The notes under the pieces were generated by a model. The model was not told where the DNA came from. It made no database searches and saw only the letters and a list, made by a program, of their open reading frames with translations. A stretch of 64,000 nt of DNA from Gammaproteobacteria bacterium (lineage in GTDB: Bacteria; Pseudomonadota; Gammaproteobacteria; Steroidobacterales; Rariloculaceae): positions 9,043-73,042 of the forward strand of contig DATBLZ010000166.1 in NCBI GenBank assembly GCA_036555065.1, in the 5' to 3' direction. The position numbers were made by a program, and so were the translations under genes. Of the stretch, positions 9,746 to 64,000 are shown piece after piece. The stretch's first letter is position 1. Every line of letters starts with the position of its first letter.

Positions 9746-11790
9746 TTCTCGCTTACCACCAGATGGGCTGCGTTGGGATCAGCGCGCTGCTCCGAAACGG
9801 GTTCGACGTTTGCGCGGTGTTCACGCACGTCGATCGCCCCGGGGAAAACACCTGGTTTCAGTCCGTCGCCGAGCTCGCCGCGGGCGCCAACCTACCGGTG
9901 TTCGCTCCCGACGCCGTGGATCACCCGTTGTGGCTCGAGAAGATCCGCGCGCTGCAGCCGGACGTGCTGTTCTCGTTCTACTACCGGAACGTCGTGTCCG
10001 ACCAATTGCTGGCGATTCCCCGCGCCGGCAGCTTCAATCTGCACGGCTCGTTGTTGCCGAAGTATCGCGGCCGCGCGCCGGCAAACTGGGCGATCCTCAA
10101 CGGGGAAACGGAAACCGGCATCACGCTTCACCACATGGTCGCGCGGCCGGATGCGGGGGACATCGTCGCGCAGCGGCGCGTATCGATAGACCCGACCGAC
10201 GATGCCCGGTCGCTCAATCTCAAGCTCGCCGCGGCGGCAGGGCCTCTACTCGACGAGTGCCTGCCGCTGATTCGGGCAGGAACGGCGCCGCGGCATCCGC
10301 AGGACGAGACCGCCGCTACGTACTACGGCCGGCGGTCGCCTGAAGACGGTGCAATCGATTGGCGCAGGCCGGCGCGCGAGATCAGCAATCTCGTGAGAGC
10401 GGTCGCGCTGCCGTACCCCGGTGCTTTCACGCATGCGCGCTCGACGAAGGTCTTCGTGTGGCAGGCGACGGCGGTCGCGGCTCGAACCACAGCGGCGCCC
10501 GGCACGATCGTGAGCGCCGATCCGTTGGAGGTGGCGTGCGGAGACGGTGTATTGCGCGTGCACCACGCCCAGGCAGACGCCGGCATCTACTGCACGGGTG
10601 CCCAGCTCGCTTCCGAGCTTCATCTCGTCGTAGGTAGCCGACTCGAGGATGCGAAAGAGCGGCGCTCAATGCGCAAGCGCAAGACGCGCGTCCTCATCCT
10701 CGGCGTCAACGGCTTTATCGGCAACTTTTTGAGCGAGCGTCTGCTTGCCGAGGGGCGCTATGAAGTGCACGGAATGGATTTGAACGACTCTGCGATCAAA
10801 CGCCTCGAGGCGCATGCCGACTTCCATTTTCACGAGGGCGACATATCGATCCACCGCGAGTGGATCGAGTATCACATCAAGAAGTGTGACGTCATTGTTC
10901 CGTTGGTCGCTATCGCCACGCCCATCGAGTACACACGCAACCCGCTGCGTGTTTTCGAGCTCGACTTCGAGGAGAACCTGAGGATCGTTCGGTACTGCGT
11001 CAAGTACAAGAAACGCCTCGTGTTCCCTTCGACGTCCGAAGTGTATGGCATGTGCCAGGACGACGAGTTCGACGAGGACACGTCCCGGTTGATCCTCGGC
11101 CCGATCCGGAAGCAACGATGGATCTACTCGGCATCGAAGCAATTGCTCGATCGCGTAATCTGGGCTTACGGACAACAGGACGGCCTCAAGTTCACGCTGT
11201 TCCGCCCGTTCAATTGGATCGGCCCGCGCCTCGATTCCCTCGAAGCTGCGCGCATCGGCAGCTCGCGCGCGATTACGCAGCTCATTTTGAACTTGGTCGA
11301 GGGCACGCCGTTGCTCCTCATCGACGGGGGCCGCCAGAAGCGGTGTTTCACGGATGTCAGCGAAGGCATCGAGTGCCTCTTCAGGATCATCGCCAACGAG
11401 CAAGGCCGTTGCGATGGGCGCATTTTCAACATCGGCAATCCGCGCAACGAGGCCAGCATCAAAGAGCTCGCGGAGCTCCTCGTCCGGGAGTTCCGCCGTC
11501 ATCCCCTCCGCGATCACTTTCCGCCGCTCGCCGGCCTCAAAGAAATCGAGAGTGCCGCGTACTATGGACGCGGCTATGAAGACGTCACTCATCGGCGCCC
11601 CAGCATCGAGAACGCGGCTCGACTTCTGAAGTGGGTTCCAACGATTCCACTCGAAGAGTCGGTGAAGGGAACTCTCGACTATTTTCTGCGCGATCATCTC
11701 GAATCGATCCTGGGCGCGACGGCTTCAACCGCGACGCCATTGCGACAACAGGCCGCTCGGGCCGAAGCGAGACTCACAGGGCGGCCGTAG
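9733..11790 (+). CDS. arnA: bifunctional UDP-Ara4N formyltransferase / UDP-glucuronate C-4'' oxidative decarboxylase
   Basis: 685 aa from ATG 9733; ORF-track start 9142 is an out-of-context extension overlapping arnC. The N-terminal formyltransferase has [15 protein letters not shown]. The C-terminal SDR has [14 protein letters not shown] and YSASKQLLD. Confidence 0.92.
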
Positions 11791-16839: not shown

Positions 16840-16930
<91 letters not shown>

Positions 16931-18717: not shown

Positions 18718-18741
18718 GTCGCGGCTGAAGCCGCTCCCACA
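18718..18741 (-). repeat. REP-like hairpin element, copy 1 (reverse orientation)
   Basis: GTCGCGGCTGAAGCCGCTCCCACA is the reverse complement of TGTGGGAGCGGCTTCAGCCGCGAC. Identical to the copy at 24523. Internal stem is GCGGC/GCCGC. Confidence 0.85.
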
Positions 18742-24522: not shown

Positions 24523-24546
24523 TGTGGGAGCGGCTTCAGCCGCGAC
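24523..24546 (+). repeat. REP-like hairpin element, copy 2
   Basis: TGTGGGAGCGGCTTCAGCCGCGAC lies between the convergent stops of purL and the PQQ dehydrogenase gene. Confidence 0.85.
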
Positions 24547-57963: not shown

Positions 57964-57977
57964 GCGCGTTTGGGTCT

Positions 57978-58001
57978 TGTGGGAGCGGCTTTAGCCGCGA
58001 C
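57978..58001 (+). repeat. REP-like hairpin element, copy 3
   Basis: TGTGGGAGCGGCTTTAGCCGCGAC lies between the convergent stops of the M2 peptidase and sulfotransferase genes. Confidence 0.85.
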
Positions 58002-58005
58002 CGCG

Positions 58006-59330: not shown

Positions 59331-59852
59331 ATGACGCTCGAAGAGATTCGCTCGCTGATCAGGGACGTTCCCGATTTCCCTAAACCGGGCATCGTGTTCA
59401 AGGACATCACGCCGCTGCTTGCGAGCCCGCGCGGCTTCGGCGCGACGATCGAGCACCTCGCGAGTCACGCGCGCGACCTGCGCGCCCACGGCGTCCTCGC
59501 GATCGAGTCGCGCGGGTTCCTCTTCGGCGGCGCGCTCGCGCGCGAGCTCGGTTTGCCGCTGCAATTGGTGCGTAAGAAGGGCAAGTTGCCGCGCGCCGTC
59601 GTCAGCGTGCCTTACGAGCTCGAGTACGGAGTCGATCACGTCGAGATGCACGCCGACGCGATCGAGCCGAAGCGTCGCTATCTCATTGTCGACGACGTCA
59701 TCGCGACGGGCGGGACGGCGGCCGCGACCGCACGGCTCGTGCGCCAGCAGGGCGGCGAGGTTGCGGCGTGCCTCTTCTGTATCGAGCTCGCGTTCCTGCG
59801 CGGCCGCTCGGCGCTCGCGGACATTCCCGTCCACAGTCTCATCACCTACTAA
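59331..59852 (+). CDS. apt: adenine phosphoribosyltransferase
   Basis: 173 aa from ATG 59331. Contains DFPKPGIVFKDITPLL and the PRPP motif YLIVDDVIATGGTA. Confidence 0.93.
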   Translation: MTLEEIRSLIRDVPDFPKPGIVFKDITPLLASPRGFGATIEHLASHARDLRAHGVLAIESRGFLFGGALARELGLPLQLVRKKGKLPRAVVSVPYELEYGVDHVEMHADAIEPKRRYLIVDDVIATGGTAAATARLVRQQGGEVAACLFCIELAFLRGRSALADIPVHSLITY

Positions 59853-60094
59853 TCCTTGGCTGTGGGAGCGGCTTTAGCCGCGACTCTTGCGCGTTGCTGG
59901 GTCGAGCGCGTGAGGGATGGGGGCGCTCCGGCTCAGACATCCCCGCCGCGCCGACGAAGGGCTTTCGCCTATGTAAGTTCGCGGTGTCGGCGCGCGGGGA
60001 ACTCGCCGTCGGCCCCCATTCCCCCACGCACCCGCCCCAGCTCCGCGAGCACTCGCGTCGCGGCTAAAGCCGCTCCCACAGCCAAGGATTAGTA
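59847..60094. repeat. 248-bp composite palindrome: two inverted REP-containing units with perfect 38-nt termini
   Basis: TACTAATCCTTGGCTGTGGGAGCGGCTTTAGCCGCGAC at 59847-59884 has its exact reverse complement at 60057-60094. The REP cores are at 59861-84 and 60057-80. The inner 172 bp are recognisably related inverted halves but diverged. Confidence 0.85.
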
Positions 60095-60997
60095 CGAACG
60101 CTTCAGGATGAAGTCCGCGACCGCGAGGAGCCCGTCGTGGTTCGCGCCGGCCGCGCGCAGCGCCGCGAGCGCACGCGCGTAGATCTCGTCGGCGCGCTTG
60201 CGAGCGCCGTCGGCGCCGAGGACCGACGGATACGTCGATTTTTGGTTTGCCGCGTCGCTGCCCGCGTTCTTGCCGAGCGTCGCCGTGTCTTGCTCGATCT
60301 CGAGCAGGTCGTCGCGAATTTGGAATACGAGGCCGATCTCGCGCGCGAAGACGTCGAGCGATCGTCTGGATTCCGCGGTTAGGTCGCCGAGCTCGCTCGG
60401 CATCATGATCGCCGCCCGAATCAGCTGCCCGGTTTTGCGCCGATGGATATCCTCGAGCGCGCGCTCATCGACGCGGTGCCCCTCGGCCTCGAGATCGAGC
60501 GCTTGTCCGCCGACCATGCCTTCGGGGCCGATCGCGCGCGCAAGCCAGGCGATCACGCGCATCTGCTTCGCGGGCGCGGCCGACAACACCGGATCGTCGC
60601 AGAGTATCTCGAACGCCAGCGCTTGGAGCGCATCGCCTGCGAGGATCGCGGTTGCCTCGTCGAACGCGCGGTGCGTCGTCGGGCGGCCGCGGCGCAGATC
60701 ATCGTCGTCCATCGCCGGCAGGTCGTCGTGAACGAGCGAATAGGCGTGCACGAGCTCGACGGCCGCGGCGATCGGATCGAGCGCGCCGACCTCGACGTTG
60801 CCGAACTCGCCCGACGCGTAAACGAGCAACGGCCGTATGCGCTTGCCGGCGCCGAGCACGGAGTACTCCATCGCTGTGCGCAACCGCGTGGGCATCCCCG
60901 TGCCGCGCGCGAGCACGTGCGTGAGGTGCCCATTAACCCTGTCTCGATAGGAATCGATCCGGGTCGCGACCGCGTCTCGCAGGGCTCGTGCTATCAT
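60089..60997 (-). CDS. ispA: (2E,6E)-farnesyl diphosphate synthase
   Basis: 302 aa with FARM LVHDDLPAMDDDDLRRG and SARM FQIRDDLLE. Confidence 0.9.
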   Translation of the reverse strand: MIARALRDAVATRIDSYRDRVNGHLTHVLARGTGMPTRLRTAMEYSVLGAGKRIRPLLVYASGEFGNVEVGALDPIAAAVELVHAYSLVHDDLPAMDDDDLRRGRPTTHRAFDEATAILAGDALQALAFEILCDDPVLSAAPAKQMRVIAWLARAIGPEGMVGGQALDLEAEGHRVDERALEDIHRRKTGQLIRAAIMMPSELGDLTAESRRSLDVFAREIGLVFQIRDDLLEIEQDTATLGKNAGSDAANQKSTYPSVLGADGARKRADEIYARALAALRAAGANHDGLLAVADFILKRSY

Positions 60998-61031
60998 TAT
61001 TTGTCATCCTAACACCGGCGCAGCGCCGCGC

Positions 61032-62135
61032 ATGCACTCGAACGCCGAAGCTAGCCCACTCGACGGTGCCAGACGAGCAGATCTCGAGTATCAGGCGGCG
61101 ATCCTCCCCGGCGTATCCAGAACGTTCGCATTGACGATTCCGGCGCTTCCCGCGCGCCTCGCCGATGTCGTCACGAATGCCTATCTGCTGTGCCGTCTCG
61201 CCGACACCATCGAGGACGACGTGGCCTTGAGCAATGGCGAGAAATCGCTGTTTCACAACCGTTTCGTTCGCGTCGTCGAAGGGGCGGAATCCGCAGAAGC
61301 GTTCGCGGCGGAGCTCGCGCCGTTGCTTTCGACGCGCGTGCTGGACGATGAGCGCGATCTCGTGCGCAACACCGCGAAGGTCGTCCGAGTCACACAAGGA
61401 TTCTCGCAGGAGCAGCAGGCCGCGCTGATTCGCTGTGTGCGGATCATGTGCTCGGGAATGCCCGAGTTCCAGCGCAAGAAGAGCCTGAAAGGGCTCCGCG
61501 ACCTCGAGGAAATGGGCGCGTACTGCTATTTCGTCGCCGGCGTCGTCGGCGAGATGTTGACCCAACTCTTTTGCCTGCATTGCGCTGAGATCAACCAAAA
61601 CCGCGATCGCCTCATGGCGCTCGCCGTGTCGTTCGGTCAAGGCCTGCAGATGACGAACATACTCAAGGACATCTGGGACGATCGCGAGGCCCAGGCCTGT
61701 TGGCTCCCGCGGTCCGTCTTCGGCGACGGCAAGTTTCGCCTCGAGGCGCTCGACGAGGAGCATCGATCCGAGGCGTTCGTCACGGGGCTCAACAAGCTCG
61801 TGGGCGTCGCCCATGCGCATTTGCGCGACGCCATGGAATACACGTGTCTCATACCGAAACGCGAAGCGGGCATTCGCAAGTTCTGTTTTTGGGCCATTGG
61901 GCTTGCGGTGATGACGCTGCGCAAGATTCATCGCAATCCCGCCTTCACTTCCGGCGCAGAAGTCAAAGTGTCGCGCCGCACCGTCACGGCGACGGTCGTA
62001 ACGACGAATCTCACTCTCATGAGCAATCGTGCATTGCGCATGATCTTTGCGCGCGCGGCCGACGGTTTGCCGCTCGCGAATCCAAACTCGTGGCGGGAGC
62101 GCGCAAGCTACGGAGCGGCGACCGAGGTTTCGTGA
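61032..62135 (+). CDS. sqs: squalene synthase-type farnesyl-diphosphate farnesyltransferase (squalene/phytoene synthase family)
   Basis: 367 aa. Asp-rich motifs LADTIEDD and NILKDIWDD, plus YCYFVAGVVGEML. The length fits single-enzyme Sqs rather than ~290-aa HpnC/HpnD. Confidence 0.75.
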   Translation: MHSNAEASPLDGARRADLEYQAAILPGVSRTFALTIPALPARLADVVTNAYLLCRLADTIEDDVALSNGEKSLFHNRFVRVVEGAESAEAFAAELAPLLSTRVLDDERDLVRNTAKVVRVTQGFSQEQQAALIRCVRIMCSGMPEFQRKKSLKGLRDLEEMGAYCYFVAGVVGEMLTQLFCLHCAEINQNRDRLMALAVSFGQGLQMTNILKDIWDDREAQACWLPRSVFGDGKFRLEALDEEHRSEAFVTGLNKLVGVAHAHLRDAMEYTCLIPKREAGIRKFCFWAIGLAVMTLRKIHRNPAFTSGAEVKVSRRTVTATVVTTNLTLMSNRALRMIFARAADGLPLANPNSWRERASYGAATEVS

Positions 62136-62887
62136 TGGCGGCCGAGCTCGGGCGCGCCGCAGGAGAAGGTCTGCCACGCGCCGCACGCGTCGCCGTGATT
62201 GCAGCGCTCGCCTCGGAGCGCGTCGGGCTCGATACGATGCCGCGCGGCGCCGTCTACATCGACGTTCTGCAGAGCGGTCCCGGCCCGGCACGGGCGCGCG
62301 CTGCAGCACGCGCGGCAGTCGCCGCGGGGGCGAATGCGCTCGTCGCGTGGGGTCTCGCCGGCGGGCTCGTCCCACGCCTCCGTCCCGGGGATGTCGTGCT
62401 GCCCGAACGCGGATTCAGCATTGGGGGCCCAGAATGGCGCGCCGCACCGCGCTGGCATGCGGCGCTCGAACGCGCGCTCGGCGGCGCGTTTCGCGTTCAC
62501 ACGGGCACGCTCGTGAGCGTCGCCGAAGTTCTCGCATCGCCGGTTGCGAAACGCACGGCCGCGGAGTCGTGCGGCGCGACCGCAGTCGATATGGAATCGG
62601 CGGCCATCGCCGCCGTGGCCGCGGGTGCAGGTATTCCGTGCGTCGCGGTACGTATCGTCGCCGACACGAGCGTCGATTCGCTGCCCGATGACATCGGCAA
62701 ATGGATCGACGCCTCCGGCCGCCGCCGTCTCCTGCCGCTGCTCGGCACCGTCGTTGCGCCCGCGCAGTGGCCGATGCTGATGCGCTTGGCGTCGCGCCAC
62801 CGCGCTGCGCGCCGGACGCTCGCTGCCCTCGCCGAACGCCTCGTGCCGAGCGGATTCCAGTTTGCACCGGCCGCCGCGCAAAGCTGA
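62135..62887 (+). CDS. hpnG: hopanoid-associated phosphorylase HpnG (PNP/MTAN-fold)
   Basis: 250 aa. ATG 62135 overlaps the sqs stop (TGATG). Nucleoside-phosphorylase-like ATAVDMESAAIA motif. Context lies between sqs and hpnN. Confidence 0.7.
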   Translation: MAAELGRAAGEGLPRAARVAVIAALASERVGLDTMPRGAVYIDVLQSGPGPARARAAARAAVAAGANALVAWGLAGGLVPRLRPGDVVLPERGFSIGGPEWRAAPRWHAALERALGGAFRVHTGTLVSVAEVLASPVAKRTAAESCGATAVDMESAAIAAVAAGAGIPCVAVRIVADTSVDSLPDDIGKWIDASGRRRLLPLLGTVVAPAQWPMLMRLASRHRAARRTLAALAERLVPSGFQFAPAAAQS

Positions 62888-62896
62888 CGATCGTCG

Positions 62897-64000
62897 ATGA
62901 TCCCCGGAGCCCACCGGATCGACAGCGCCGTTGCATCGTGGGTGCGTCTCGTTATTCGCTTTCCAAAGACGATGATCGTCGTGGTTGCAGCGTTGACGGT
63001 CGTCAATGTTTGGTACGCGCGCGGCCACCTCGGCATCAATACAGACACGGCCGACATGATTTCGCCGGAGTTGCCGTGGCGGCGCGACTTCATTGCGTAT
63101 CGCGAAGGCTTCCCGGCGCGTGATCGCAACATCGTGATCGTCGTCGACGCCGCTACGCCCGACGCCGCGACTGCATTCGCTGCGGACCTCGCCGCGACGC
63201 TGCGCCGCGAACCCGAGCGTTTTCACTCGGTGTTCGCCGCGGGCGAAGGCGAGTTCTTCGAGCGCAACGGCCTGCTCTATCTGCCGACGGCGGATCTCGA
63301 GGATCTCGGCGACCGGCTCGCGGCGGCGCAACCGTTGGTCGGGCTCTTGAGCGATCGTTTCAACGGTGCAGGCGTCGTATCCGTTGTCGAAACCACGCTC
63401 GAGGCCGGAGACGCGGCGCCGCGCGACGCGGCAGAGCTCGGGTCCCTCTACACCGAGCTCGCGCGTACGCTCGCTGCCGCTGCCAAGGGCGAGCGTCGCG
63501 CGCTCGCGTGGCGCGAGCTCGTCATGGGCCCACAGAGCGGCTCGCCACGCGCACTCGTGCTCGTGCAGCCCGCGCTCGCTTTCGACCGTGTTCGACCGGC
63601 ACGCGATGCGATCGAGCGGATTCGTGCGGTCGCTGCGGAGCTCGAGACGACTCAGGACGCGGCCGTTCGCGTCCGCCTCACGGGCACGATCGCGCTCGAG
63701 GACGAGGAGCTTGCGAGCGTCGCGAGCGGCGCGACGTGGACGGGGATTTCGTCGCTGGCGCTCGTGATCCTCGTGCTGTGGTGGGCGCTGCGCTCGCCGA
63801 TCGAGATCGGGGTTTCGCTCATCACGTTGCTGGCCGGGCTCGTCGGCACGACCGCGTTCGCGGCGCTTGCCGTCGGTCATCTGAACCTGCTCTCCGTCGC
63901 ATTCGCGGTGCTCTATCTCGGCCTCGGTGCCGACTTCGTCCTGCACTTGTTTCTGCGTTTCCGCGAGCTCCGCGCGCTCGGCCACGGCATCGACGCGGCG
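62897..64000 (+). CDS. hpnN: hopanoid-associated RND/MMPL transporter HpnN, N-terminal 368 codons (runs off window end)
   Basis: Not in the supplied ORF track. I translated it manually from ATG 62897 and the frame has no stop up to base 64000. N-terminal TM (MIVVVAALTVVNVWYA), a periplasmic loop, then the MMPL-type TM bundle (LALVILVLWWALRS...LLSVAFAVLYLGLGADFVLHL). Codon bias is coding-like. Confidence 0.75.
   Translation, partial: MIPGAHRIDSAVASWVRLVIRFPKTMIVVVAALTVVNVWYARGHLGINTDTADMISPELPWRRDFIAYREGFPARDRNIVIVVDAATPDAATAFAADLAATLRREPERFHSVFAAGEGEFFERNGLLYLPTADLEDLGDRLAAAQPLVGLLSDRFNGAGVVSVVETTLEAGDAAPRDAAELGSLYTELARTLAAAAKGERRALAWRELVMGPQSGSPRALVLVQPALAFDRVRPARDAIERIRAVAAELETTQDAAVRVRLTGTIALEDEELASVASGATWTGISSLALVILVLWWALRSPIEIGVSLITLLAGLVGTTAFAALAVGHLNLLSVAFAVLYLGLGADFVLHLFLRFRELRALGHGIDAA

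Follow-up and report, generated by a model that had tools for sequence, protein, structure and literature searches.

Head-to-head dimers of GT(A/G)G-tagged REPs, and the REPIN architecture that they constitute, have been described (PMC3733652; PMC3337134; PMC3116915; PMC2817692). At convergent gene junctions REPs lie within 20 bp of both open reading frames, and their termini can supply stop codons (PMC3733652). The case considered here is in a stretch of DNA of 64,000 nt, analysed as a whole and called the window below, in which the convergent genes apt and ispA both end within a 248-bp palindrome. The preferred reading, to which a probability of about 0.75 is given, is that the palindrome was created by insertion of a 238-bp non-autonomous palindromic mosaic repeat, with two GT(A/G)G REPs placed head-to-head on the outside and a different repeat, X, inside. 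The element belongs to known kinds, as it is a REP doublet or REPIN, a BIME-like mosaic and a TA-flanked palindromic MITE.

With REPINs (Bertels & Rainey 2011; Di Nocera et al. 2013; Nunvar et al. 2010) it shares inverted REPs with their heads outward, a spacer that forms a hairpin and a position between convergent genes a few nucleotides from both stops, where repeat termini can supply the stop codons. Its core, TGTGGGAGCGGCTTTAGCCGCGAC, closely resembles the REPs of Pseudomonas putida and P. entomophila (PMC2817692). It differs from REPINs in the length of the spacer, 172 nt as against 20–110 nt in the dimers described, and in that a copy of another repeat family makes up the spacer. Further differences are the ten extra symmetric bases outside the heads, an apparent TA duplication and the lack of a cognate RAYT in the window and of a second copy of this architecture in the searches described below.

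The resemblance to BIMEs (E. coli BIME-1/RIP, and those of Stenotrophomonas) is in the combination of REPs in alternating orientation with conserved non-REP modules. However, the inner module in the window, a palindrome of ~140 nt, is unrelated to the L, S, A and B motifs of E. coli, and there is a single doublet rather than an array. The TA-duplicating MITEs (Correia of Neisseria, and the enterobacterial ERIC/IRU; PMC3184786) provide the other counterpart. Like them, the element is within the range of 100–250 bp, has terminal inverted repeats and is flanked by 5′-TA-3′; the likeness extends to a long hairpin formed by the whole element, to co-transcription with flanking genes and to presence that varies among close strains (PMC3184786). 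There is, however, no sequence similarity to those MITEs, the terminal inverted repeats in the window contain REP, one insertion has been seen, and no matching IS or transposase was identified.

The apt/ispA junction, occupied and empty

The apt gene (59331–59852, + strand) encodes an adenine phosphoribosyltransferase of 173 aa ending ..LITY (NCBIfam NF002636, 7.6e-66; homologues are also of 173 aa, at 100% coverage). Its last codon, TAC, is at 59847–59849 and its stop, TAA, at 59850–59852. Facing it is ispA (60089–60997, − strand), for a farnesyl diphosphate (FPP) synthase of 302 aa ending ..KRSY, which matches the NCBIfam profile NF045485 (2.2e-104) through its last position and has a 100% identical counterpart in an NCBI MAG. 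The ispA stop, TAA, is at 60089–60091 (TTA on the + strand) and its last codon, TAC, at 60092–60094 (GTA on the + strand). ispA adjoins squalene-synthase-like (SQS_PSY), PNP_UDP_1 and MMPL genes (window 60089–64000) in a hopanoid-type cluster; in one relative (L067, 1–10000) the same cluster is followed by mevalonate-pathway genes, those for HMG-CoA reductase, GHMP kinases and diphosphomevalonate decarboxylase. The mevalonate pathway is uncommon in Gammaproteobacteria.

A repeat search gives perfect inverted arms at 59847–59884 and 60057–60094, each of 38 nt, 100% complementary and 172 nt apart, and the span from 59847 to 60094 is the only long hairpin-type inverted repeat within the 64-kb window. 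The outer TACTAA of each arm is the Tyr codon and stop of apt on the + strand and of ispA on the − strand. Arm coordinates and both gene ends are thus as given in the preliminary description of this DNA. That description also had the structure as inserted rather than native intergenic DNA, to be expected in some strains and not in others, and held that, on its arrival, both genes had their native 3′ ends replaced. The first two of these points are borne out by what follows; the last is not.

Metagenomic contigs of close relatives with the same gene order permit comparison site by site (the organism is an uncultured gammaproteobacterium, and its nearest named relative, Candidatus Rariloculus, has 73% Apt identity). 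In six samples with Apt identity of 95% (L001–L006) the site is empty, TACTAGTG, with a 4-nt overlap of the two genes and the junction sequence ..ACT TAC TAG TGC... The empty site of L010 and L011 (Apt 90%) is a perfect 8-bp palindrome, TACTAGTA, in which both genes end in Tyr-stop. A compact junction is also present in more distant relatives (L071–73), with a spacer of 4 nt. In L067 (IspA 85%) 10 nt are missing at the junction (10860–10960), and the two genes share 17 nt, their products ending ..EYA* and ..KRTQ*. The apt of this contig is called as two ORFs, which suggests a frameshift or an assembly error.

Removal in silico of 59852–60091 (240 nt) from the window leaves the junction TACTAGTA, gaplessly colinear with the empty sites (88/101 and 82/101 identical). 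From this restored colinearity it follows that an element of 238 nt (59852–60089, termini ATCCTTGGC...GCCAAGGAT) entered the central TA of TACTAGTA, with duplication of the TA. The two TA copies, at 59850–59851 and 60090–60091, are defined by comparison with the same empty sites (TACTAGTA in L010/L011 and TACTAGTG in L001–L006), in which TA is single where the window has it double, though a palindromic duplication of 2 nt is not separable from microhomology. L008, a sister contig with Apt identity of 99%, contains the insert as well, and in one other JGI contig the apt/ispA spacer is likewise 236 nt. Presence in L008 and absence from L001–L006 and L010/L011 is the strain difference that had been anticipated, and on this comparison the 238-nt insertion is evidently young, postdating the split from the lineage with 95% Apt identity.

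In the ancestral state the convergent apt and ispA genes overlapped by 4 nt in the 8-bp palindrome TACTAGTA, which gives Tyr-stop on both strands. The element entered the central TA, which became duplicated. With an A as its first base and a T as its last, it restored both stops, TAG becoming TAA in both genes, with the terminal Tyr kept and neither protein changed. Entry at TA with regeneration of both stops is what the empty-site comparison shows.

Element-free relatives have TAC-TAG-TA/TG at this junction. Both terminal Tyr codons of apt and ispA in the window are native, and the third base of each stop (G to A) is all that derives from the element. The C-terminal residue of Apt is Tyr in 89/120 homologues and Phe in 22/120, nearly all of them 173 aa long; that of IspA is His in 60/120 and Tyr in 47/120, with ends ..RSY or ..RSH. 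Replacement of the native 3′ ends of both genes is contradicted by the element-free relatives, whose genes already have the terminal Tyr and the TA of the stops, and orthologues free of the element end with the same Tyr-stop, an outcome that the preliminary description had itself named as refuting the idea. The three outermost pairs of the arms (TAC/GTA) owe their palindromic character simply to the TAC Tyr codon with which each gene ends.

The REP doublet and its inner module

Units of REP type had been noticed in the structure, and the identification holds: the core, GTGGGAGCGGCTTYAGCCGCGAC / GTGGGAGCGGCTTTAGCCGCGAC, has five copies in the window where 0 are expected, all of them intergenic at gene 3′ ends. 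Its anatomy, GTGG-GA-GCGGC-TTTA-GCCGC-GAC, is that of RAYT-associated REPs, in which a 5′ GT(A/G)G head precedes a short, GC-rich and imperfect palindrome with an interruption of 2–4 bases. A variant with a GTAG head is present in the relative L007, and copies elsewhere in relatives and metagenomes make this a repeat with many extragenic occurrences. Two of the five copies form the head-to-head doublet. The left partner (59862–59884, +) has its GTGG head outward and matches in form the GT(A/G)G-headed RAYT-associated REPs of PMC2817692; the right partner (60057–60079, −) has the same core sequence. The three others are singletons. One (57979–58001, +) is between convergent M2-peptidase and sulfotransferase genes and has the TTTA loop variant of the arms, a second (24524–24546, +) fills a 30-nt spacer between convergent genes, and the third (18718–18740, −) is 6 nt downstream of a stop codon. 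The 14 outer bases of the doublet arms, TACTAATCCTTGGC, are absent from these singletons, and so is the inner sequence.

The left arm (59847–59884, +) is made up of the native TAC, the duplicated TA, 10 element-specific nucleotides, ATCCTTGGCT, and the REP core, and the right arm (60057–60094, −) is its exact reverse complement. In L008 the right arm has a single substitution (C to A at window position 60082) and the match drops to 37/38; the arms of the element are thus not invariably perfect. Inside the TA copies the termini are perfect inverted repeats of 34 nt (59852–59884 and 60057–60089), as in the TIRs of a MITE, and the single TA of the empty sites is as expected for a MITE target duplication, with the qualification about microhomology. 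The element has, as outer modules, two REPIN-like REPs each with 10 further symmetric bases (ATCCTTGGCT) and, as inner module, X. The doublet has the REPIN architecture, two REPs of the same group in inverted orientation with ends and spacer in one hairpin, and its enclosure of a core that recurs separately is that of a BIME-like mosaic. No second REP doublet is present elsewhere in the window, which thus lacks a population of REPINs.

Between the arms the palindrome is imperfect. Its halves align at ~70–74% with indels and meet near 59970, confirming the earlier account of an interior of related and diverged halves. Both RNA and DNA folding give a single long hairpin for the whole 248 nt on either strand, with RNA energies of −182.9 (+) and −195.1 (−) kcal/mol (z about −15) and a DNA energy of −106 kcal/mol (z −13). 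An Rfam search of the window gave no family for the element at gathering score; the sole match, and the only one by Rfam or ARAGORN in the window, was a tRNA-Ser(CGA) (16840–16930, −). Open frames of the interior were considered as possible small proteins and rejected as GC-rich artefacts with no homologues. A 79-aa open frame spanning the element, used in a protein search aimed at spurious ORFs on other copies, had no match.

The core of X (59900–60040, loop at ~59962–59978) is a copy of a second palindromic repeat family. It has 79.5% identity over 127 nt (E 5e-23) to L007 1591–1715, part of a REP-less palindrome of 187 nt (1552–1738) at a different convergent junction, that of the M2-peptidase and sulfotransferase genes. 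X is known from these two loci only, and the window copy lacks the outer ~14 nt found at both ends of the L007 copy. The arms of the L007 copy run through both flanking stops (1552–1558 and 1732–1738: TGG-TAG-CC.. and ..GG-TTA-CC). The sulfotransferase gene there ends AGG-TAA, compared with CGC-TGA in L001, with the Arg kept.

Assembly, refilling and possible function

There is a slight leaning to the view that the mosaic moved as one unit rather than having been assembled in place. Three things point that way: the TA duplication is clean, 10 symmetric bases that do not belong to the REP lie outside the heads, and the outer ~14 nt are absent from the window X. Against the insertion of a composite stand the failure to find a second composite copy, the occurrence of X at only two loci and the lack of a transposase in the window, and also the TA duplication in so far as RAYT/IS200-IS605-type enzymes are not known to make one (PMC2817692). 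The terminal 21-mer ATCCTTGGCTGTGGGAGCGGC had 0 matches in 185,579 species genomes, and a 19-mer of the terminus had 0 in viral contigs. An X-core 20-mer gave 41 loci in the species genomes, with matches of only 20–34 nt that are taken as chance or coding; the X-core had 0 matches in viral contigs, and larger contig pieces of the relatives L066 and L067 contained no further X copies. A metagenome scan for REP-N{163,193}-REPrc returned 13 doublets, heterogeneous and none sharing the termini, interior or flanks of the element; the known sister locus L008 was not among them, the scanned collection covering the lineage poorly. No combination of the HUH...Y-x-NPV motifs of a RAYT was found in six frames of the window, a crude test, and a Pfam scan of 10 otherwise unlabelled ORFs of the window revealed no transposase domain. 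With no further composite found and no IS identified, the dispersed copies and autonomous IS that go with a MITE are not seen.

The alternative that fares best, though it has appreciably less than an even chance, is stepwise assembly. A short REPIN, mobilised by a RAYT, would have come to lie between the stops first, with X arriving later in its spacer or loop, so that the 248-bp structure never moved whole. Metagenomes (L013, L016 and L017) and the M2/sulfotransferase junction of L009 provide short head-to-head doublets of the same REP, X occurs alone, without REPs, in L007, and the metagenomic doublets L012, L022 and L024 enclose other palindromic repeats. Insertion of DNA between REP partners is also documented (PMC3733652; PMC3116915), and a second composite copy was found neither in species genomes nor among metagenomic doublets or viral contigs. 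On the other hand, a doublet without X is not among the sampled relatives at this junction, an unusual REPIN would be needed, as other REP copies are without the 10 symmetric outer bases, and the window X would have to be missing the outer ~14 nt present at both L007 ends. Nor is the TA duplication explained by insertion of RAYT type; transposition of the RAYT/IS200-IS605 type is not known to duplicate its targets (PMC2817692).

Metagenomic doublets of the same REP that are otherwise unrelated to the element have nested palindromes at L012 1545–1754, L022 1719–1944 and L024 1099–1309. The nested motif in L024 is GTCATTCCCGCGAAGGCGGGAATCC with its complement, and L012 and L022 both have a related motif, GTC(G/A)TTCCGA... 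Nesting of a second palindrome between REP partners may be a recurrent pattern.

Independent fillings of the apt/ispA junction itself number at least four among related lineages. The window and L008 have the REP-X-REP composite. In L007 there is a different insert of 97 nt, with one REP, flanked by CTAA..CTAA, the duplicated 4-nt overlap. In L009 a REP is placed 7 nt downstream of a TGA stop, and in L068–70 there is a cluster of another REP family, of 171 or 208 nt and polymorphic among strains. Apt is identical in the latter strains, yet the tandem array of REP fragments (CACGAGACG(G)CCGCTCCCA) varies in length by 37 nt between L068/L070 (3023–3230) and L069 (3023–3193), a difference which implies that REP clusters expand and contract rapidly.

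Nearly every relative has its own palindromic element at the neighbouring M2-peptidase/sulfotransferase junction: a REP singleton, a short dimer of head-to-head REPs, X, a long palindrome designated Z, or another REP family (window 57964–58005; L009 ~1272–1334; L007 1552–1738; L001 ~1608–1730; L010 ~987–1125; L068/L069 ~1103–1185). It is empty in two relatives, with spacers of 1 nt and 5 nt (L067 12737–12739; L071 1174–1178). The arms of Z, GGTGTGCGAGTAGGTTTGGATGAGAC (L001 ~1611–1640 and its inverted partner), align loosely with the REP core (about 15/24), and may be a decayed or related REP, the resemblance being too weak for a conclusion. A terminus common to X, Z (in L001/L010) and the window element was also considered, and was set aside as the outer-arm alignment is too weak and depends on how the alignment is made. 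The fillings of both junctions agree with the published occurrence of REPs at convergent gene ends (PMC3733652).

Under the preferred reading of a mobile mosaic, compact convergent gene ends would be among the few permissive landing sites, and perhaps TA-rich sites are preferred targets. Only those insertions that regenerate both stops would survive. The arms would in consequence abut and include the stops, and the junction would be refilled repeatedly.

In the mRNA of either gene the hairpin would be ~120 bp long and begin at the last sense codon. With Rho-independent terminators it has in common a GC-rich hairpin directly after the stop codon, but neither strand of the element has a U-tract, and a stem of ~120 bp greatly exceeds those of terminators in length. 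A scan for terminators and promoters gave no terminator-like site in 59847–60094 on either strand, no U-tract and no promoter in the element. The element is not a canonical intrinsic terminator, and the bidirectional terminator that had been envisaged for it does not fit these results. Most likely the hairpin would act as a barrier to 3′ exonucleases and as a spacer between the convergent transcripts; it may also slow termination or the release of ribosomes. RNA stabilisation and service as a RAYT substrate, both put forward in the preliminary description, are candidate roles. Of the two RNA hairpins, that of the ispA sense has the greater stability, by 12 kcal/mol, mismatches being G-U on the ispA-sense strand, and this is a possible hint of which transcript matters.

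Retention of the hairpin by selection, because it terminates or insulates transcription in both directions or stabilises the mRNA of two genes that used to run into one another, seems unlikely, even if there is something to be said for it. The ancestral junction had neither spacer nor terminator, the hairpin is very stable on both strands, with the G-U pairs of the ispA-sense strand giving it the extra 12 kcal/mol, and hairpin-forming repeats have been gained at the same junction at least four times. Such refilling, however, is equally expected from neutral tolerance combined with an insertion preference, several related lineages do well with an empty overlapping junction, and the element has no U-tract or terminator-like site.

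An imperfection older than the insertion

It is improbable, but can be entertained, that the element represents an undescribed class of palindromic MITE with termini (TA)A...T(TA), which would target TA in overlapping or abutting convergent stops, supply the completion of both stops and have acquired its REPs symmetrically via hairpin-templated copying. Slight hints of such a class may be seen in L007, where the X arms extend through both stops (GG-TAG-CC / GG-TAA-CC) and the outermost bases loosely resemble the window termini. If it exists, its members would be mobile 'gene-end spacers'.

The two copies of X permit the age of the asymmetry within the palindrome to be judged. Corresponding sides are more alike across copies (84% for window-left and L007-left, 83% for window-right and L007-right) than are the left and right halves within a copy (74% in the window, 72% in L007). 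Informative sites group 8 by side, 2 by copy and 0 crossed, with a shared 4-nt indel in addition. Of the 45 pairs in the consensus hairpin of the two copies, none is broken and 5 are compensated on both sides. As the left/right asymmetry is common to both copies, the imperfection of the palindrome predates the insertion and is not decay in place.

The preliminary description had proposed two REP-bearing units of ~120 bp placed tail-to-tail, or duplication of one by hairpin-templated repair, with gene 3′ ends replaced, interiors later diverging and arms kept perfect by selection or gene conversion; halves related at ~70–74% beside perfect arms did invite this, but it is now very improbable, since the TA of the stops and the terminal Tyr codons already exist in element-free relatives, the X halves cluster by side and not by copy (the differences common to the L007 copy, 8 vs 2 sites and the 4-nt indel, being older than the insertion), the insertion came after the split from the 95% relative, too recently for ~28% divergence in situ, and the L008 arms have a mismatch. 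No gene conversion or selection is needed to account for perfect arms, as these are REP modules in a young insertion and in L008 match at 37/38 already.

An apparent duplication of TA around a REP doublet is unexpected for mobilisation by a RAYT and, if confirmed at other copies, would bear on how composites move; otherwise the case fits existing knowledge of REP dimers located where convergent genes end. Perfect arms around a diverged interior, as it shows, can be built into a mosaic repeat and need not be a sign of gene conversion. The window and its relatives give a base-resolved view, before and after, of a palindromic repeat entering the junction of convergent genes with shared stops, the most compact type of gene junction, and harming neither gene, and show that a single junction can be colonised independently many times.
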